From sequence record SRR9188677_168: 34,226 bases of DNA. One strand, written 5' to 3'. Position numbers and translations under genes: made by a program. How positions within the stretch are numbered: the first letter of the stretch is position 1; each line of letters begins with the position of its first letter. Positions 1,080-29,352 of the stretch are shown here, in pieces. The notes under the pieces are model-generated. The model did not search any database and was not told the DNA's origin. It saw nothing but the letters and a program-made list of their open reading frames with translations.

Positions 1080-2747
1080 CTAGGCAAACAGCGCCCAAGC
1101 CTTTTGTACCGTCATCGAGATGCCATAGGTGATTGGAATTAAAACTGCCAGCCAGGCCAGTCTGACCAGCCATGGCGAGCTAGGCTTGCCATCATTGATA
1201 GGCTTAACGTTTGTTGCGCCAGTTTCTTTGGATTTACCCAGGGATTGTTCAACAGCAAGTTCGGCATCGGTCATGAAGTATTTACTATCCACCGGCCTCA
1301 CCAGCAGATTGGCAACAAAACCAATGCCTAATAGCGCTGCAAGTGTCAGGAAAATCGGTGCATAGATGTCTGCAAACGGTACTTTCGCTTCCAGGCGTAC
1401 ATCATGCATGTAATTGACGATGACAGGCCCAACGATGCCTGCTGTGGACCATGCCGTGAGCAAACGGCCGTGAATTGCCCCTACAAACTGGGTGCCAAAC
1501 AGATCAGCAAGATAGGCAGGAATGGTAGCAAAACCGCCACCGTACATGGAAGCAATCACGCAGAATGCGATCAAAAACAGCGCAAGCTGGTGATGGTTGG
1601 CAGCATAGGTGGCGGTGATATACATGAATGCGCCGAGTACAAAAAAGATGAAATAGGTATTACGCCGTCCCAGTTTGTCTGAAGATGTTGCCCAGCCAAT
1701 GCGGCCGAAGATATTAAATACCGAAATCAGTCCGACAAAACCGGCACCTACAGCGGCTGCCGCAGCAGTCAATGACTCATCCGCTTTGATATCGGCAAAA
1801 GTCAGTGATGGTTGTGCGATCAGTTTGCCGCCAAAAGTTTCCTGGAGCATAGGTGCCGCAGCGCCAATAATACCAATCGCTGCTGACACGTTCATGCACA
1901 AGATCAGCCACAGTAGCCAGAATTGCGGTGTTTTATGTGCATTTTTCAGGTGTACATGTTTGTTCACCACCATACGTTTATGCTGCTGGTCTGGTGGTGT
2001 CCATCCCTCCGGTTTCCAGTTGGCGGCCGGGATACGATAGCCTAAAGAACCGCAGGTCATGAAGATAAAATAAACAATGGCCAGAACGACAAAGGTTTGC
2101 CAGACACCAGGTTCAGTAGGCGTTGCAAACAGGCTCATCAGCTTGGTTGCGAGGGGTGAGCCTATCATGGCGCCGCCACCAAAGCCCATAATCGCCATGC
2201 CGGTCGCCATGCCTCTGCGGTCAGGAAACCATTTGATCAGCGTCGACACGGGAGATATGTAGCCAAGGCCAAGACCTATGCCGCCTATCACGCCACTACC
2301 CAGCCACATCATCCATAACTGATGGTGATAGACACCACAAGCCGAGATCAACAAGCCACCGCACCAGCAGAGTGTCGCCACCAGACCAGCCTTGCGCGGT
2401 CCTGCACGTTCCAGCCAGCCACCCCATAATGCAGCAGAGCAACCAAGCAGCACAAAAAACAGGGTGTACATCCAGCCCAGGTCGAACTGTGTCCAGTTGC
2501 AATCAGTCGCAAATAAGGCCTCAGCCGTGCCTGCAAGCTTGTCTGAAAAAGTGCTCGCGCCAGCTGCACATGCAGCCAGTGGTGCGCCATCTGGCCCGGT
2601 CAAAGCTGTGCCAAGTGGTTTCCAGAACACACTGAATCCATAAGCCATGCCAATCGATAAATGTACTGCTAGTGCGGCTGGTGGAACCAGCCAGCGGTTA
2701 AAGCCTTTGCCTGCCGTAATATGTTCTTTTGACAGATTGAACAACAT
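1080..2747 (-). CDS. MFS transporter, oxalate/formate antiporter (OFA)-like
   Basis: NRWLVPPAALAVHLSIGMAYGFSVFW, GLGLGYISPVSTLIKWFPDRRGMATG, MYGGGFATIPAYLADLFG; 12+ hydrophobic segments. Confidence 0.88.
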   Translation of the reverse strand: MLFNLSKEHITAGKGFNRWLVPPAALAVHLSIGMAYGFSVFWKPLGTALTGPDGAPLAACAAGASTFSDKLAGTAEALFATDCNWTQFDLGWMYTLFFVLLGCSAALWGGWLERAGPRKAGLVATLCWCGGLLISACGVYHHQLWMMWLGSGVIGGIGLGLGYISPVSTLIKWFPDRRGMATGMAIMGFGGGAMIGSPLATKLMSLFATPTEPGVWQTFVVLAIVYFIFMTCGSLGYRIPAANWKPEGWTPPDQQHKRMVVNKHVHLKNAHKTPQFWLLWLILCMNVSAAIGIIGAAAPMLQETFGGKLIAQPSLTFADIKADESLTAAAAAVGAGFVGLISVFNIFGRIGWATSSDKLGRRNTYFIFFVLGAFMYITATYAANHHQLALFLIAFCVIASMYGGGFATIPAYLADLFGTQFVGAIHGRLLTAWSTAGIVGPVIVNYMHDVRLEAKVPFADIYAPIFLTLAALLGIGFVANLLVRPVDSKYFMTDAELAVEQSLGKSKETGATNVKPINDGKPSSPWLVRLAWLAVLIPITYGISMTVQKAWALFA

Positions 2748-2832
2748 GTAATACCCCTTAAATTTCTCCCGGTAACATCTTGTTACAATTTCACCTAAAA
2801 GGCAATCCGCGCAAATTTAAAATTATGTGAGG

Positions 2833-2861
2833 TTGTCATTAAAATGTCACAATACATTCAT
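2833..2861 (+). promoter_or_regulatory. Pho box (three half-sites at 11-bp spacing) upstream of phoB
   Basis: TTGTCAT (2833)-TAAA-ATGTCAC (2844)-AATA-CATTCAT (2855), matching the CTGTCAT-N4-CTGTCAY consensus, about 55 bp before the phoB ATG. Confidence 0.8.
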
Positions 2862-2917
2862 AAACTGGCGAGCAATTAAAGAAGTACATTTTGTTGGAAA
2901 TCCTAAAAGGGAGCGTC

Positions 2918-3622
2918 ATGGCAGCAGCTAATATTTTGGTCGTAGAAGATGAGCCGGCAATCCAGGAATTGCTTGCATTGAATATCAAACAAGCCGGACA
3001 TCATGCGATTCGCGCTACCAGTGTAGAACATGCGCAGATGCTATTACGTGAAACCATGCCTGACCTGATTCTGCTGGATTGGATGCTGCCTGGTATGAGC
3101 GGTATCGAGTTTGCCCGTCGCCTGAAGTCAGATGGTTTAACCAAAGAGGTACCGATTATTATGCTGACCGCGCGTGGTGATGAATTTGATAAAGTGCGTG
3201 GCCTTGAAGTTGGTGCCGATGACTACGTGACCAAGCCGTTTAGCCCTCGCGAACTAAATGCACGTATCAAGGCAGTCTTGCGTCGCCGTGCGCCCCAGAT
3301 GACAGATGACCCGATTGAAATCGCGGGCCTGCATCTCGACCCTACCACCCACCGCGTCACCGGTCATAATGTGCATATTCCACTAGGCCCAACCGAATTC
3401 AAGTTGCTGCACTTTTTCATGACTAATCCTGAGCGTGTGCACAGCCGCACACAGCTGCTGGATAAAGTCTGGGGTGACCGTGTATTTGTTGAAGACAGAA
3501 CCGTGGATGTGCATATTCGCCGTTTACGCAATGCACTGGTGGCATCTAACCATCAGGATATGATTCAAACCGTACGTGGTTCCGGCTACCGTTTTTCGGT
3601 ACATACTGATCCCGGTCAATAG
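2918..3622 (+). CDS. phoB: Phosphate regulon response regulator PhoB
   Basis: [15 protein letters not shown] phospho-Asp, [50 protein letters not shown] at 2918 after GGGAG preferred over TTG 2891. Confidence 0.93.
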
Positions 3623-23935: not shown

Positions 23936-24745
23936 ATGCTAAACGCTCTCTTATCACGTGCAATGTCCGGCGAGAAAATCGCCATGTTGACATGTTATGA
24001 CGCTACTTTTGCCAAGTTGATGCATTTGGCCGGTGTGGACATGCTGCTGGTAGGTGACTCATTAGGGATGGTCATACAAGGGGGTGATAGTACTCTGGGC
24101 GTCACCATGCAAGATATGCTGTATCACACCCGTATTGTGGCTAAAGGAGCGCCTGGTGCCGTGATCATGAGTGATATGCCGGTTGATAGTTACGAACACG
24201 ACCTCGCAGATGCCTTGCAAAATGCACAGGCCTTGATTGAGGCTGGCGCACATATCGTCAAGATTGAAGGTGGTGGTCACATGGTGGAAACAGCCCGCTA
24301 CCTGGTTGAAAACGGTGTGCCAGTATGTGCGCACCTGGGATTCACACCGCAATCGGTAGAAAAACTCGGTGGGTATAAAATCCAGGGAAAAACTGAAGCA
24401 GCCGCCCAGGTGATATTAAAAGATGCGCAAGAGATGGCGGCGGCTGGAGCAAGCATGGTGCTGTTTGAAATGGTGCCGGCAGCATTGGCAACCCACATTA
24501 CAGAGACTATTTCCGTCCCTACCATTGGCATTGGCGCTGGTGCAGGCTGTAGTGGCCAAGTGCTGGTGTTGCAGGATTTATTGGGTATTTATACAGGGCC
24601 GGCAGAAAAAAATCCTCAAGATTATAAAGCGCCCAGGTTTGCACAAAATTTCCTGGGCCAGACTGGTAACATAGAGAAAGCGATCATAAATTACGTTCAA
24701 GCTGTGAAATGCGGTGAGTTTCCGGCCGTGCAGCATAGCTATTAA
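23936..24745 (+). CDS. panB: 3-methyl-2-oxobutanoate hydroxymethyltransferase
   Basis: LTCYD, LVGDSLGMV, KIEGG, AHLGFTPQ, IGIGAG..CSGQVLV. Confidence 0.96.
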   Translation: MLNALLSRAMSGEKIAMLTCYDATFAKLMHLAGVDMLLVGDSLGMVIQGGDSTLGVTMQDMLYHTRIVAKGAPGAVIMSDMPVDSYEHDLADALQNAQALIEAGAHIVKIEGGGHMVETARYLVENGVPVCAHLGFTPQSVEKLGGYKIQGKTEAAAQVILKDAQEMAAAGASMVLFEMVPAALATHITETISVPTIGIGAGAGCSGQVLVLQDLLGIYTGPAEKNPQDYKAPRFAQNFLGQTGNIEKAIINYVQAVKCGEFPAVQHSY

Positions 24746-24802
24746 AAGAATTCATTGATTCTACCGATGATGTCAAATCGTGTTTGATCAACAATCATTA
24801 TC

Positions 24803-25504
24803 ATGAAATTACTCGCCATCGAATCTTCTACCGAATTCCTCTCACTGGCCTTGCAAACCGAAGCTGGCCTTACTTCTTTCCATGAAGCGACAGGTCCTGC
24901 AGCTTCACAACGTATCCTGCCCGAAATTCAGCGTTTGCTGGCAAAAGCCGGTGCAAAACTGGCCGAACTGGATGGTATTGTCTATGGCACCGGTCCTGGC
25001 GCTTTCACAGGCGTACGGATAGCGGTAGGCGTCACCCAGGGTCTGGCTTTCGGGGCTGACCTGCCTGTGTTTGGGGTGAGCTCTGTGCAGGCGGTGGCGC
25101 AGGCAGCCTGGCTGGAAACCGGGGCTGAAAAAGTGCTGGTGTGTCTGGATGCCCGGATGGGCGAGGTATACCATGCCGCGTTAATCAAACAACAGCATGG
25201 CTGGATAGAAGTTTCGCCGCCGGTGGTGTGCAAGCCGCAGGAGGTGCCAGCGATTGCGGGTGATGACTGGTTGGCGGCAGGTTCTGGCTGGGCTGTATTT
25301 GGTGAAGTGCTCTCAGCACAATATACTCAGCAGATAAGCCACATTCACGCGGAAATCATGCCTACGGCCAAGGCTATGCTAATGATTGCAACTCCCGGAT
25401 TTATTGCGGGAGATACCCAGTCTGCGCAACAGGCCGCACCGCTTTATATACGTAACCGCGTCGCATTAACCGCTGATGAGCGTGCGCAAGGGCAAACACT
25501 GTAG
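24803..25504 (+). CDS. tsaB: tRNA threonylcarbamoyladenosine biosynthesis protein TsaB
   Basis: LAIESS, GPGAFTGVRI, LDARMGEVY, PLYIR. Confidence 0.94.
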   Translation: MKLLAIESSTEFLSLALQTEAGLTSFHEATGPAASQRILPEIQRLLAKAGAKLAELDGIVYGTGPGAFTGVRIAVGVTQGLAFGADLPVFGVSSVQAVAQAAWLETGAEKVLVCLDARMGEVYHAALIKQQHGWIEVSPPVVCKPQEVPAIAGDDWLAAGSGWAVFGEVLSAQYTQQISHIHAEIMPTAKAMLMIATPGFIAGDTQSAQQAAPLYIRNRVALTADERAQGQTL

Positions 25505-25513
25505 GGTAAATCA

Positions 25514-25975
25514 ATGAGTGCATTACCTCAATACCAGCCACAATTCCGGCTCATGTCTTACGAAGACCTGATCGCGGTTTGCCGCATAGAGCCGATAATT
25601 TACAGTCACCCGTGGACCTACGGTAATTTCAAGGACTCTCTGGACTCAGGCTATTGCGCATGGGTAATGGAGATGTCCGGGGAAATCATAGGTTATGCAT
25701 TGGTGATGATGGTGCTGGATGAAGCGCACCTGTTAAATATCAGTGTCGGACAAACGCATCAGGGGCAGGGGTTGGGGAGAGCCTTGCTTGCGCATATGAT
25801 AGAAATTTCCAGGCATCGGCTTGCGGCTAATATGTTTCTTGAAGTGCGTGAAAGCAATACCAAAGCGATTGCTTTATACGAGACGATGGGTTTTTGTGAA
25901 ATGGGCATTCGGCGTAATTATTACCCGACCAAGTCAGGGCGTGAAGATGCCGTGCTGATGGGGCTCGCCTTATAA
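25514..25975 (+). CDS. rimI: Ribosomal protein S18 N-acetyltransferase
   Basis: HPWT, EAHLLNISV, QGQGLG, LEVRESN..A..LY, RRNYY, REDAVLM. Confidence 0.94.
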   Translation: MSALPQYQPQFRLMSYEDLIAVCRIEPIIYSHPWTYGNFKDSLDSGYCAWVMEMSGEIIGYALVMMVLDEAHLLNISVGQTHQGQGLGRALLAHMIEISRHRLAANMFLEVRESNTKAIALYETMGFCEMGIRRNYYPTKSGREDAVLMGLAL

Positions 25976-26017
25976 GGGCTTAAGGTTGACGAGAGATATT
26001 CAAAACAGGAGCATGCC

Positions 26018-26638
26018 GTGAGTCTGGGGCGCGAAGATATATTGCGGGAATTGGAGTTGTTGCCTGTCTGGCGGTTGCGCACGCCAGTAGCGGAAAGCGC
26101 ATTGCCGGCGATTACAGTACGAACTTCCCCTGAAGTTCCAACAGAATTGCTCATTGAACAAAGCAGTCAGGTTTTGATTGAAACCATAGGCGCTGATCCA
26201 GTCATCGAACTGAGGGCTGACAGTGAGCCTGCGCCGATAGCGGAGATTCCTGAAAACAAGCAACCTGAAATTGCGCCTGCGCCAATGATTCAATCCCCCT
26301 GGTGTTTAATGTGCCCAAAAGTTGATGACGCTGCTGCGCAAGCTTTACTGCAAAATATCGTGCGTGCCTTGAAGCTGGCTCCTGAAGAATTACACGTTTC
26401 TCACCAGCCGTTTAAAGTTGCGCAAGTACAAAGCCGGTTTGCTGTTTTGTTTGGCCTGGAAGCCGCCAATGCCTTTTTGGGAACCAATCACGCGGATCTC
26501 GTTTCTATACGTGGCCAGTTATTCACGCACGATGATATGCGCTACGTCATTACGCATCATCCGGATGCCATGCTAGCCAATCCTTTGCTAAAAAAAGAAG
26601 TCTGGCATGATTTGTGTCTGCTACTCGCCGAAAAGTAA
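26018..26638 (+). CDS. Degenerate uracil-DNA-glycosylase-fold protein; candidate DNA polymerase III psi (HolD)-like subunit
   Basis: C-terminus resembles family-4 UDG (SIRG...VITHHP..ML.NP..K..VWHDL) but lacks the GE[A/G]PG motif and the 4Fe-4S Cys set. N-terminus REDILRELELLPVWRLR is followed by a Pro/Glu-rich linker. Confidence 0.65.
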   Translation: MSLGREDILRELELLPVWRLRTPVAESALPAITVRTSPEVPTELLIEQSSQVLIETIGADPVIELRADSEPAPIAEIPENKQPEIAPAPMIQSPWCLMCPKVDDAAAQALLQNIVRALKLAPEELHVSHQPFKVAQVQSRFAVLFGLEAANAFLGTNHADLVSIRGQLFTHDDMRYVITHHPDAMLANPLLKKEVWHDLCLLLAEK

Positions 26639-26754
26639 GCTGGTTGCGAAGCAGACACAATCAATCTTGCAGAAAAAATAAAACCGGGCCGGGCTAGTTG
26701 TAGCCAGGGATCTGGCCCCCATATAAATCAAAACTATTAATGAGGAAAATCACG

Positions 26755-27348
26755 ATGCGTCAAATATTTAAGGTTGTATTGTTAGCCGGAGTGTTAATGC
26801 TTTCTGGCTGTGGTTATAACCAGTTTCAATCGCTGGATGAAGAAACTAAGGCAAGCTGGTCTGAAGTATTGAACCAATACCAGCGCCGTGCCGATCTGGT
26901 GCCTAACCTGGTGTCTACCGTGAAAGGCTACGCCAGTCATGAGGAAAAAGTGCTGACTGAAGTCACTGAAGCGCGCGCCAAAGTTGGCAGCATGCAAGTG
27001 ACGCCGGAATTGCTGAATGACCCTGAAGCGTTTGCCAAATTCCAGGCCGCACAAGGCCAGTTGACCAGTGCGTTATCGCGCCTGATGGTGGTGTCTGAAA
27101 ACTACCCTAACCTGAAAGCGGATGCCAGCTTCCGTGATTTGCAGGCGCAACTGGAAGGCACCGAAAACCGTGTGACTGTGGCGCGCAACCGTTATATTGA
27201 GGCGGTGAAGCAATACAATGTCACGGTGCGTAGTTTCCCCAACAACCTGACCGCGATGATGTTTGGCTACCAACCTAAACCATCGTTTACGGTAGAGAAT
27301 GAAAAAGCGATTTCATCTGCACCAAAAGTAGATTTTGGCGATAAGTAA
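26755..27348 (+). CDS. lemA: LemA-family lipoprotein
   Basis: Lipobox LSGC-GYN, YQRRADLVPNLV, ENYPNLKA, LEGTENRV.VAR.RY, FP. Confidence 0.93.
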   Translation: MRQIFKVVLLAGVLMLSGCGYNQFQSLDEETKASWSEVLNQYQRRADLVPNLVSTVKGYASHEEKVLTEVTEARAKVGSMQVTPELLNDPEAFAKFQAAQGQLTSALSRLMVVSENYPNLKADASFRDLQAQLEGTENRVTVARNRYIEAVKQYNVTVRSFPNNLTAMMFGYQPKPSFTVENEKAISSAPKVDFGDK

Positions 27349-27354
27349 TTGTTG

Positions 27355-28233
27355 ATGGCTTTGAAGTTGATGCTGTCGGTTTGGTTGCGTGTGCTGCTGG
27401 TTTGTAGCCTGTTACTGACAGGTGCCAGCGCACATGCCGCCAAAGGTCTGGTCGACATTCCGCCGCTAAGCGCCGCTGTCACTGATTTGACGCAGACGCT
27501 GTCGGCAGAGGAGCAGACAGCGCTCAACGAAAAACTGTCGCAGTTTTCGCAGCAGAGCGGTTCGCAAATTGCCGTACTGATATTGCCGACTACACAACCG
27601 GAAGATATCGCGCAATTTGGCATCCGCCTGGCTGATGCCTGGAAAATTGGCCGCGAAAAACAGGATGATGGCGTCATCGTCATTGTCGCCAAGCAAGACC
27701 GTAAGATGCGGATTGAAGTCGGTTATGGGCTTGAAGGCGCTATCCCGGATGCGGTCGCCAAGCGCATTGTCGCTGAGCAACTCAGCCCCGCATTCAAACA
27801 AGGCCAGTTTTACCAGGGCTTGCATGTTGCGACAGATACCCTGATCAAACTAATCCAGGGCGAACAATTGCCGGCACCTGCCAAAGGGCAAGCTGCGGCA
27901 GGGCAACGGGGCTTGATGCACTGGCTGCCTATCCTGATGTTTGCTGCCATTTTTCTTGGCGCTATTTTGCGCGGCATGCTTGGCTCGTTTTTTGGTAGTG
28001 CCCTCACTGGCGGTGCTTTAGCTGTACTCGCTGGTTTCCTGGGTGCAACGCTTTTGGTCATGGGGCTGGTCGGCCTTGCCGCATTTATCTTCACGCTGGC
28101 CATGGGCGGCGGTCAGGGTGGTTTGCCGATAGGCGGATTCCCGGGCGGCTTCGGCGGTGGAGGCGGCGGCCGCGATATATTCAGCGGCGGCGGTGGCGGT
28201 TTTGGTGGCGGTGGCGCATCAGGAGATTGGTAA
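27355..28233 (+). CDS. TPM-domain membrane protein (YgcG-like) with Gly-rich tail
   Basis: Signal peptide (AHA), VTDLTQTLS, WKIGREKQDDG, RIEVGYGLEGAIPD, TM helices, GGGFGGGGASGDW. Confidence 0.92.
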   Translation: MALKLMLSVWLRVLLVCSLLLTGASAHAAKGLVDIPPLSAAVTDLTQTLSAEEQTALNEKLSQFSQQSGSQIAVLILPTTQPEDIAQFGIRLADAWKIGREKQDDGVIVIVAKQDRKMRIEVGYGLEGAIPDAVAKRIVAEQLSPAFKQGQFYQGLHVATDTLIKLIQGEQLPAPAKGQAAAGQRGLMHWLPILMFAAIFLGAILRGMLGSFFGSALTGGALAVLAGFLGATLLVMGLVGLAAFIFTLAMGGGQGGLPIGGFPGGFGGGGGGRDIFSGGGGGFGGGGASGDW

Positions 28234-28742
28234 TGAAACCCGTACACCCATTCAGACGTTTCTTCCGTCATCTCACCAGCCATCCATGGCAGGTCAAACG
28301 CCATTTCTCTGAGTCTGCGTTGCAACATATCGAACACGCAATTGCAGCGAATGAGCATTTGCATGCCGGTGAAATCCGTGTCGTGATCGAGTCCGGCCTG
28401 CCGCTTGCTGCCATTTTGCAAGGCGTGTCACCACGGCAACGGGCGATACAACTGTTCGGCCAACTGAATATCTGGGATACTGAACAGAACAACGGCGTGC
28501 TGATTTACCTGATGCTGGCGGACAAGGATGTAGAGATTATCGCTGACCGTGGCATACACAGGCACTTGCAAGCGCAGGGCTGGCAGCATATTTGCCAGCA
28601 AATGGAAGGGATGTTTAGAAGTGGGCAGTTTGAACAAGGCGTTACATACGGCATTACCGCAATTGGCGATCATCTTGCAGAATACTTCCCGCCTCAAGCG
28701 ACTCCGCGCAACGAGCTTTGCAATCACGTATTGGTGCTCTAG
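28233..28742 (+). CDS. TPM-domain protein (second type)
   Basis: GEIRVVIE, RAIQLF..L.IWDTEQNNGVLIY, EIIADRGI, NEL; translationally coupled (TAATG). Confidence 0.9.
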   Translation: MKPVHPFRRFFRHLTSHPWQVKRHFSESALQHIEHAIAANEHLHAGEIRVVIESGLPLAAILQGVSPRQRAIQLFGQLNIWDTEQNNGVLIYLMLADKDVEIIADRGIHRHLQAQGWQHICQQMEGMFRSGQFEQGVTYGITAIGDHLAEYFPPQATPRNELCNHVLVL

Positions 28743-29352
28743 TGTTTTGTCGGGCGGTTTATTACTGATTGCAGCCGGCACAGCGCAGGCTGACTTAAAA
28801 GATATTTATCGCATCTACCACACCCAGCCCAGCCTGACGTCATTCGAAATCTGCCAGGGAGGTGGCTGCACCCATTCAGATACATTGAAACTGGCTGAAT
28901 CCGAGTGGGATCATATACTAAGAATCTTCTCTCCCCTCCCCGAAACCGCTGAACAAGAACGCATCCAGATAGCCGAAGCCATCGGCATGCTGGAAGATAT
29001 CGTAGGCACCAAAACCGGCACTGCTGCTGATCGCGCCGGTACCTTTGGCAATAGCGATTACCAGCACCAGCAAGACTGTAATGATGAGGCCATTAATAGC
29101 ACTACCTATATGCGTTTGATGCAGCAGGCGGGCTTGATACGCTTTCACACCATTCAGGATACCCGCACCCGCAAATTCTTCTTTACCGGCTGGCCACATA
29201 GCACTGCGGTTATTCGCGAGAATGATACCCAGGCTGAGTTTGCGGTCGACAGCTGGTTTTACGATAATGGTCATGCCGCGACTATCGTGCCGATGGCGCA
29301 ATGGAAAGATGGCTATATTCCTGAAGACAGCCCGATTCACCATCGAGAATAA
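28675..29352 (+). CDS. Putative exported protein with a Cys-His-Asp (papain/transglutaminase-like) motif set
   Basis: Signal-like SVLSGGLLLIAAGTAQA-D; ICQGGGC; QDCNDEAINST, WPHSTAVI, AVDSWF.DNG. Start uncertain (TTG 28675 assumed). Confidence 0.65.
   Translation: MQNTSRLKRLRATSFAITYWCSSVLSGGLLLIAAGTAQADLKDIYRIYHTQPSLTSFEICQGGGCTHSDTLKLAESEWDHILRIFSPLPETAEQERIQIAEAIGMLEDIVGTKTGTAADRAGTFGNSDYQHQQDCNDEAINSTTYMRLMQQAGLIRFHTIQDTRTRKFFFTGWPHSTAVIRENDTQAEFAVDSWFYDNGHAATIVPMAQWKDGYIPEDSPIHHRE

Follow-up and report, generated by a model that had tools for sequence, protein, structure and literature searches.

In Escherichia coli, the N-terminal peptide of psi (HolD), a subunit of the DNA polymerase III clamp loader, penetrates the collar of the loader and contacts three DnaX subunits (PMC11253446). 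Reviews leave a puzzle open: chi is distributed across alpha-, beta- and gamma-proteobacteria, whereas psi, its anchor, is reported in gamma-proteobacteria only, and psi has perhaps diverged beyond detection (PMC3290774). The psi-binding site of chi looks conserved in genomes in which no psi can be found (PMC3197488). On the side of DNA repair, family-4 uracil-DNA glycosylases (UDGs; UDG4 for the family) are defined by motif A, GE(A/G)PG, and motif B, HPS(S/A)(L/V)(L/V)R (PMC10359453). Here we describe a gene found immediately after rimI in a 34,226-nucleotide stretch of DNA from sequence record SRR9188677_168, hereafter the window, which brings these two families together. We consider it likely that, in Methylophilus, the gene after rimI is the missing psi of the clamp loader, built from a dead UDG. 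To judge by its position and sequence, this psi-like gene is the ortholog of E. coli holD.

A three-part protein under selection at both ends

The ORF (open reading frame) list confirmed the coding sequence: a GTG start, 206 codons and a stop. The start is backed by the orthologs, which all open with M/V-S-L-x-R-E-D. The gene and the parts of its product are as follows.

26018..26638, + strand: whole coding sequence of the psi-like protein (ORF list, 109 homologs, purifying selection)
26018..26086, + strand: N-terminal peptide, residues 1-23, motif L9..L12.L14...W18..R21; proposed DnaX-collar-binding element (alignment with the psi N-terminus, dN/dS)
26087..26281, + strand: Pro/Glu-rich disordered linker, residues 24-88 (model confidence, dN/dS 0.52)
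26282..26635, + strand: globular domain, residues 89-206, with the fold of a stripped family-4 UDG and corresponding to the core of psi; binding of chi is proposed (model confidence about 90, fold, profiles)
26300..26329, + strand: residues 95-104, W-C-L-M-C-P-K-V-D-D, the remnant of UDG motif A (alignment with full-length relatives)
26555..26578, + strand: residues 180-187, H-H-P-D-A-M-L-A, the remnant of UDG motif B, with His-Pro but without the last Arg (alignment)
26588..26632, + strand: C-terminal helix, residues 191-205, with K192, W196, D198 and L199 (predicted helix, alignment)

A preliminary description of the locus had reported a 206-residue ORF after tsaB and rimI, an N-terminal string, a Pro/Glu-rich stretch (24-88) and C-terminal strings; all of these are present. 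An AlphaFold2 model, for which an alignment of 64 sequences (A2) served as input, displays the same three parts: a short helix at residues 5-13, with a predicted local distance difference test score (pLDDT) of about 60-66, a disordered segment over residues 22-84 (pLDDT <50), and an alpha/beta domain, modelled with confidence, that covers residues 90 (approximately) to 206 (block mean pLDDT 88-94). The ratio of nonsynonymous to synonymous substitution rates (dN/dS) was computed as the median of pairwise values between 11 Methylophilus and Methylotenera orthologs, retaining pairs with dS between 0.05 and 3 (of 55 pairs, 46 for residues 1-23, 39 for residues 24-88 and 41 for residues 89-206). 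It was 0.09 for the peptide, 0.52 for the linker and 0.18 for the domain, and both the length and the sequence of the linker vary among the orthologs. These data indicate purifying selection on both peptide and domain, the linker between them being a free tether. Within the C-terminal helix, K192 is conserved in 71 of 73 aligned rows and W196 in 72 of 73; K192, W196, D198 and L199 are common to UDG4, to the degenerate forms and to psi.

The globular domain is a reduced family-4 UDG

Alignments with full-length relatives revealed which parts of the enzyme have been removed. The stretch W95-C-L-M-C-P-K-V-D-D104 aligns to W-L-L-V-G-E-A-P-G-A of these relatives: GE(A/G)PG is absent, C99-P100-K-V-D stands in its place with Pro100 at the position of the motif A Glu, and ten residues are deleted after the motif. 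The protein has no N-terminal C-x2-C region, and deletion has removed a 23-residue core block to which the K-C-R-P-P stretch and the fourth Cys belong; all four Cys positions are hence gone. In family-4 UDGs, these four Cys ligate the 4Fe-4S cluster. The motif B stretch, H181-P182-D-A-M-L-A187, retains the His-Pro pair but neither the Ser nor the last Arg; in the corresponding columns, E. coli psi has S-P-A-L-T-D-L-R. The loss of GE[A/G]PG and of the Fe-S cysteines, claimed in the preliminary description, is thus borne out by the alignments. The accompanying view that the protein is probably not a glycosylase agrees with the loss of motif A, of the four Cys and of the 23-residue block and with scores that lie far below the curated UDG cut-offs (PF03167, 19.9 bits against 24.3; TIGR00758, 23.7 bits against 125.3). 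Judging from these missing residues, uracil-excision activity has probably been lost.

The fold has been retained. The best structural matches of the model are family-4 UDGs, with 4zby at Z 12.0 over 121 aligned residues (rmsd, the root-mean-square deviation, 2.8; VIA-align) and 1ui0 at E 9.5e-6 in Foldseek. Comparison of the profiles of the Methylophilus type and of the full-length UDG4 type with hhalign gave 98.4% (E 4.3e-15). Among PDB sequences, phmmer returned nothing significant for the psi-like protein (best E 0.22), and the mixed alignment A1 retrieved only UDG4 and UdgX, psi not being found at E ≤ 10, as was to be expected of an alignment that contains true UDGs. Taken together, these results show that the globular domain is a reduced family-4 UDG.

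The same domain corresponds to the core of psi

The domain was compared with psi by profile-profile alignment, hhalign being run on alignments from which the N-terminal peptide and the linker had been trimmed. A psi set of 15 sequences (14 Pfam-positive loci of other orders and E. coli) matched the Methylophilus type at 99.2% (E 1.1e-19) and the full-length UDG4 type at 98.9% (E 1.3e-17), against 0.0-1.2% for controls in which any of these families was compared with chi, RimI or TsaB. As some of the Pfam-positive psi are themselves UDG-like, the comparison was repeated with 10 compact psi only, which matched the Methylophilus type at 98.2% (E 4.8e-14) and the full UDG4 at 94.9% over 87 columns (E 4.5e-8). 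In these alignments hhalign lays S-P-A-L-T-D-L-R-A-N-P...A-L-W-Q-Q-I-C of E. coli psi over H-P-A-Y-L-L-R-N-L-P...K-A-W-A-D-L of UDG4.

Structural searches led to the same two families. In Foldseek, E. coli psi (1em8_D; E 7e-3, probability 1.00, template modelling score 0.59 normalised to psi) comes directly after the UDG4 and UdgX entries and before TDG and MUG. VIA-align superimposed residues 85-206 of the model on residues 27-132 of psi (1em8_B) with Z 7.9, 98 of the 110 psi residues aligned and rmsd 3.1. A search independent of Foldseek through 48,161 representative chains returned, at ranks 1-8, UDG4, UdgX, a phage polymerase UDG-like domain, UDG5, two MUGs, psi and SMUG1, psi (3sxu_B) being at rank 7 with Z 7.1 and 95 of 102 residues aligned; as a Z under 8 can reflect a common arrangement, the argument for psi rests on rank, coverage and sequence profiles. 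Psi is the only chain of the top eight that is not named as a member of the UDG superfamily, and unrelated folds begin at rank 9 (Z 6.2). When modelling was applied instead to a beta-proteobacterial psi of this slot that is fully reduced, psi came first (Z 7.9), and UDG4 scored Z 6.0, tied with unrelated Argonaute MID domains; the UDG link is therefore invisible by structure alone from a fully reduced psi.

These data demonstrate that the resemblance is beyond chance in profile-profile and structural tests, not so in single-sequence tests, and that the psi family and family-4 UDG are homologous. The preliminary description had called the protein an unannotated psi and had asked for comparison with both families by profile and structure: the domain proved similar to both (hhalign, Foldseek), psi profiles matched at 98.2-99.2% against at most 1.2% for controls, 98 of 110 residues aligned, the N-terminal peptide matched and the current names of the protein are not psi. 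The three blocks of E. coli psi that it quoted occur letter for letter in translated K-12 holD.

A psi-type peptide at the N-terminus

In alignments A3 and A5, the start of the window protein, M-S-L-G-R-E-D-I-L-R-E-L-E-L-L-P-V-W-R-L-R-T-P, aligns with that of E. coli psi, M-T-S-R-R-D-W-Q-L-Q-Q-L-G-I-T-Q-W-S-L-R-R-P. A full-length UDG4 in the same slot opens, for example, with M-K-D-R-R-A-L-I-L-K-E-M-G-I-T-E-W-R-L-R-P. The Leu and Trp of the peptide are invariant in a 36-row alignment; among 73 full-length rows, L9 is found in 70 of the 71 filled, W18 in 72 and R21 in 66. With the peptide only, hhalign gave 94.7% (E 5.6e-8) between psi and the full-length UDG forms and 98.1% between the Methylophilus type and the full-length forms. 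The known psi models detect the same element on complete glycosylases: in a six-frame search of whole genomes, positions 1-29, 2-26 and 2-21 of the Pfam psi model matched the N-termini of frames of 277-333 amino acids in three genomes, and the NCBI psi model matches residues 1-27 of one such full-length gene. As far as alignment can tell, a psi-type peptide resembling the clamp-loader-binding element is present in the psi-like protein.

The rimI slot and its full-length occupants

The psi-like gene is the third of a tsaB-rimI-X arrangement.

24803..25504, + strand: tsaB, first gene of the arrangement (TIGR03725, 176.9 bits)
25514..25975, + strand: rimI, neighbour of psi genes and of UDG genes with the N-terminal peptide (TIGR01575, 130.5 bits)
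26007..26011, + strand: AGGAG, Shine-Dalgarno-like, six bases ahead of the GTG (read from the sequence)

Both tsaB and rimI score above their curated cut-offs and lie 5' of the 206-residue ORF. The names attached to the 109 homologs point to Methylophilus; the proteins themselves are called 'hypothetical', 'uracil-DNA glycosylase' or 'DNA polymerase'. In E. coli K-12, holD directly precedes rimI, and a Sulfuriferula relative in the rimI slot is named 'DNA polymerase III subunit psi' by NCBI.

Genomes of the order and of the class were surveyed with peptide profiles. A profile of 25 positions (A3) matched 97 of 201 genomes of the order at E ≤ 0.01, once per genome (88 of 185 good-quality genomes); 97 is a floor, since the 12-bit threshold missed real peptides in Glaciimonas, Rubrivivax, Aquabacterium and Sideroxydans. 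A profile of 23 positions (A5) matched 192 of 301 genomes of the class at the same threshold. The counts of these surveys include genomes flagged as unpublished (G027 in the order; G240, G342 and G496 in the class), and dropping them shifts each count by at most 2. Of the 14 Pfam psi matches in the class (E ≤ 1e-3), 12 were also found by the peptide profile. In a sample of 401 genomes of the phylum, all 47 matches (E ≤ 0.001) fell in genomes of the same order or class, a result that says nothing on absence from Alphaproteobacteria, the profile having been made from beta- and gamma-proteobacterial sequences.

The 60 top-scoring peptide loci (30 of the order and 30 of the class) were then inspected, the profiles having been built from sequences of the same surveys. 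In the order, tsaB and rimI stand beside the peptide gene in 30 of 30 loci, GE[AG]PG being present in 24 and absent in 6; in the best 30 of the class, rimI is adjacent in 28, with GEAPG present in 23 and absent in 7. Over all 60, rimI is adjacent in 58 and the gene encodes a complete UDG4 by motif in 47. The seven full-length forms tested all exceed the TIGR00758 cut-off (196.6-215.7 bits). The full-length rimI-linked UDG4s with the same peptide that the preliminary description had foreseen do exist, being the commonest form.

Several loci of these surveys have further peculiarities. Two N-terminal-peptide frames (L065 of G194 and L193 of G433) exceed 500 amino acids, with UDG motifs only near the end of the locus, and contain either a very long linker or additional domains. 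The peptide gene and chi share a contig, at 7-30 kb from each other, in many genomes of other orders (for instance C3:16849 and C3:24069 in G423, C139:20122 and 29046 in G334, C1:1521784 and 1531386 in G348), a proximity that may represent regional synteny, not functional clustering.

Downstream of the psi-like gene, the window carries a LemA gene (26740-27348) followed by two TPM-domain genes (the three spanning 26740-28742); LemA is also the next gene in several other loci of the order. Overlapping the second TPM gene is a 267-residue frame (28549-29352) that belongs to no Pfam family. A scan of positions 24600-26900 gave a single promoter-like site, located on the minus strand, and zero terminator-like sites, fewer than in shuffled sequences. 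Contigs from three metagenomic runs that are labelled RNA-Seq, but are 'probably DNA', span parts of the psi-like gene.

Chi is present and no other psi was found

The nearest genome, G001, which has 59% of sampled 31-mers in common with the window, was used as a proxy for the host. Its ortholog of the psi-like protein is also 206 amino acids long and is the single match to the N-terminal peptide in the genome. Chi is encoded next to pepA (109.5 bits), and three bona fide genes of the UDG superfamily lie elsewhere (97.3, 61.8 and 43.3 bits). The preliminary description held that a separate canonical holD would speak against it; none was found in G001 by PF03603, for which nothing exceeded the cut-off and the best match, 14.2 bits, was the ortholog of the psi-like gene itself, or by TIGR00664, for which the best score was 13 bits, to an 82-residue frame with a stop. 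The same genome also contains, on the minus strand of contig C4 (locus L004, frame 1465-3048), a 528-residue protein with a DUF4130 domain followed by a UDG domain whose motif A is G-E-Q-P-G (UdgX-type), unrelated to the rimI slot.

Chi scored above its cut-off in 195 of 201 genomes of the order and 247 of 300 of the class, the Pfam psi model in 3 and 12, respectively; in the order, the proteins of these 3 genomes occupy the rimI slot. In the class, with G448 dropped, 175 genomes have both peptide and chi, 16 the peptide only, 73 chi only and 36 neither; these counts are descriptive, as related genomes are not independent. Five genomes (G242, G250, G375, G379 and G429) have a Pfam psi match (E ≤ 1e-3) and no chi match at the same threshold; in these, chi may be very divergent or psi may persist without chi.

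Reduction occurred within the Methylophilaceae

All 12 loci labelled Methylophilus lack GExPG (167-240 amino acids) and have intact ORFs. Among 16 loci labelled Methylotenera, 14 lack GExPG and two keep GEAPG, and most ORFs are intact. Novimethylophilus retains GExPG, and the Methylobacillus proteins, of 312-331 amino acids, are true UDG4s whose N-terminal peptide is 79-95% identical to that of the window protein. A quick maximum-likelihood tree was computed on 53 rows, after removal of 20 that were very long, namely three long degenerate ones and every compact psi, that of E. coli among them. All 19 Methylophilaceae rows fall on one side of a branch (SH-aLRT, the Shimodaira-Hasegawa-like approximate likelihood-ratio test, 94), the 13 degenerate Methylophilaceae rows form one clade (SH-aLRT 98), and a tree grouping all 16 degenerate rows is rejected by the approximately unbiased test (p-AU 0.013). 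The tree thus places the catalytic loss inside the Methylophilaceae, independently of at least some other lineages: reduction took place within this family, from a full-length UDG4 already bearing the same peptide. A first tree of 73 rows was not used for the position of the compact psi and of E. coli, as it gave many long-branch warnings and placement was unreliable.

These data suggest that the window protein represents a parallel and less advanced reduction on the path to an E. coli-type psi, not the ancestor of the latter. The direction from UDG to psi is drawn from the wide occurrence of UDG4 devoid of the peptide (structures from Thermus, Thermotoga and Sulfolobus), not from a rooted tree. 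In other orders, four loci above the Pfam psi cut-off (L090 of G416, L087, L089 and L094) still carry UDG4-like strings such as I-I-G-E-A-L-D...G-E-P and L-R-G-K-I-H...V-T-Y-D-T-A-Y-L-L-R, and intermediates therefore exist outside the Methylophilaceae. Overall, the results suggest that psi in general evolved from a family-4 UDG repair enzyme that was tethered to the clamp loader and lost catalysis several times. The preliminary description had proposed the protein as an intermediate between UDG4 and psi. It was right in that the family bridges both: the profiles of compact psi and of the Methylophilus type match, whereas E. coli psi alone fails (0.6% to UDG4), so that it is the window family which makes the link visible. 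In the literal sense of an ancestor the proposal would not hold, as the tree suggests parallel reduction.

Weighing the assignment to psi

In the mechanism that we propose, residues 1-23 would insert into the collar formed by domain III of DnaX, as the N-terminus of E. coli psi does; the flexible linker of about 65 residues would tether the compact domain 89-206, presumably devoid of uracil-excision chemistry; and this domain would serve as a scaffold that holds chi, which in turn would bind SSB.

Several observations weigh against this assignment. The psi-like protein scores below the psi cut-offs, with PF03603 giving 16.1 bits (E 0.013; residues 99-141 to profile positions 42-82) against a cut-off of 22.2 and TIGR00664 (cut-off 150.55) no match at E ≤ 1, the cut-offs being diagnostic thresholds and not biological properties. 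BLASTP against E. coli psi gave E 0.021 in a single comparison, not significant alone, and hhalign with E. coli psi alone gave 8.2% against the Methylophilus type. The peptide-only comparison of psi with the Methylophilus type was modest (68%, E 4.8e-5). The psi Z scores, 7.1-7.9, are in a middling range, and MUG scores as psi does; by structure alone, the domain is thus simply a member of the UDG superfamily. His181-Pro182 survive, making a residual nucleic-acid function possible. Peptide and chi are also imperfectly coupled: in the class, the peptide occurs in 16 genomes with no chi match and chi in 73 with no peptide match. Last, in family f47, chi was not found in four of four genomes, and yet a UDG-like gene of 250-290 amino acids with a divergent N-terminus, L-L-Y-N-x-L-W-L, follows rimI in three of them (L235, L236 and L238; G102, G048 and G148); in the fourth (L237 of G191), an unrelated gene on the opposite strand does. 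Neither the slot nor the extension thus depends strictly on chi. As a control, f47 is ambiguous and neither supports nor refutes a coupling to chi.

Among other explanations, the one that fares best is a replisome-tethered module acting independently of chi, in which the dead UDG domain would sense uracil, abasic sites or single-stranded DNA, or bind DNA at the fork. The domain does keep the motif B His-Pro and the overall DNA-binding scaffold of UDG, 16 genomes of the class have the peptide with no chi match, and Pseudomonas psi binds single-stranded DNA whereas E. coli psi does not (PMC3197488). We nevertheless judge it unlikely: the domain has lost motif A, the Fe-S region and the 23-residue core block, canonical psi is among its nearest relatives by profile, and G001 has chi but no other psi candidate.

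Still less probable, in our view, is that the N-terminal peptide acts on some partner that is not the clamp loader, such as one tied to tsaB and rimI, its likeness to psi being a matter of descent and not of retained function. This would account for the very conserved linkage to tsaB and rimI (30 of 30 and 28 of 30 loci), but the linkage of holD to rimI in E. coli is not known to have a functional meaning. No other part of the protein is as strongly constrained as the peptide (dN/dS 0.09). It is with this motif that E. coli psi enters the DnaX collar (PMC11253446).

That the protein is a highly divergent glycosylase still active appears improbable, for the UDG fold at Z 12, the retained His181-Pro182 and the JGI name 'uracil-DNA glycosylase' on many relatives are set against Pro100 at the motif A Glu position, the missing cysteine positions, a TIGR00758 score of 23.7 bits where 125.3 are required and the three bona fide UDGs elsewhere in G001. 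A decaying, functionless relic of the rimI-linked UDG, as the large deletions relative to full-length relatives might suggest, is hardly credible given intact ORFs in 12 of 12 Methylophilus-labelled and most Methylotenera loci, a confident fold and the constraint on both ends of the protein (dN/dS 0.09 and 0.18), which argues against decay.

We thus retain the assignment to psi; the idea put forward in the preliminary description is supported, none of the findings examined that it had named as decisive refuting it. The window gene is probably, as far as sequence allows us to say, a psi ortholog that lies below the family thresholds and has a recognisable, dead UDG4 core. A broader proposal, which we favour by a small margin over its negation, is that in most beta- and many gamma-proteobacteria psi is a complete and probably active Fe-S family-4 UDG with a collar-binding peptide, the E. 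coli-type psi and the Methylophilus protein being independently degenerated, dead remnants. If this is true, uracil excision would be physically built into the replisome.

Comparison with known systems

The rimI-adjacent gene with its psi-type peptide offers a concrete and testable answer, for the beta- and gamma-proteobacterial lineage, to the puzzle of chi without psi, and corrects the annotation of proteins now named 'hypothetical', 'uracil-DNA glycosylase' or 'DNA polymerase'. Psi would also gain an evolutionary origin, in a clamp-loader-tethered family-4 UDG whose catalysis was lost several times; this proposed descent, from a tethered UDG4 that most relatives would still have intact, gives the finding its wider interest. 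A literature search, with subscription papers and the fold-classification databases (ECOD, CATH, Pfam clans) outside its scope, found no paper linking psi or HolD to UDG. A 2022 review on the non-catalytic parts of DNA glycosylases mentions the clamp loader, psi and polymerase III zero times, and in a 2024 review of replication chi and psi are termed 'homologs', UDG going unmentioned in the available text (PMC11253446). A database-level hint of the link may already exist. In the Atlas, a cluster of which 68% of the members have PF03603 is auto-named 'UDG-like domain-containing'; look-up scores were at most 0.87, and the observation is a lead only.

The window protein and E. coli psi (HolD; PF03603/TIGR00664; 1EM8, 3SXU) have in common a gene adjacent to rimI, the N-terminal motif, a core aligned over 98 of 110 residues, the motif B relic and the C-terminal K..W..L helix. 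They differ in that E. coli psi has no 65-residue linker and that the window protein retains more of the UDG scaffold (the LRG loop and His-Pro); identity is 21.9% over 128 aligned columns, with the window protein below both curated cut-offs, and the E. coli gene precedes rimI whereas the window gene follows it. The 'cryptic' psi of Pseudomonas aeruginosa likewise has a conserved N-terminal element, a long disordered region and a core, and was likewise missed by annotation (PMC3197488). However, it was recognised through psi-to-psi similarity, with no link to UDG mentioned in the available text, and the word 'glycosylase' occurs 0 times in that paper.

With family-4 UDGs (TIGR00758; 1UI0, 1L9G, 4ZBY) the window protein shares the fold (Z 11.5-12.0), and with the Methylobacillus and Novimethylophilus UDG4s of the same family it shares both the slot and the N-terminal peptide; unlike them, it has neither GE[AG]PG, nor the four Cys positions, nor the 23-residue block. 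A family-4-like UDG fold is also joined to a replicative enzyme in the N-terminal domain of a phage family-A DNA polymerase (9QHS_A, phiLo; 'SPO1 DNA polymerase-related'), which matches the model with Z 9.0-9.1, but there the link is a covalent fusion with the polymerase itself, where the window protein would have a peptide as tether to the clamp loader. Finally, in poxvirus D4 and gamma-herpesvirus UNG, a UDG-fold protein acts as an architectural replication factor in a role independent of catalysis (PMC1936997, PMC5934625). These are family-1-type viral enzymes with other partners (A20, the viral polymerase), and their recruitment is analogous, not homologous; if the full-length rimI-linked forms are active and bound to the replisome, they would be the bacterial counterpart of these viral structural UDGs, and co-replicative uracil surveillance would be implied.

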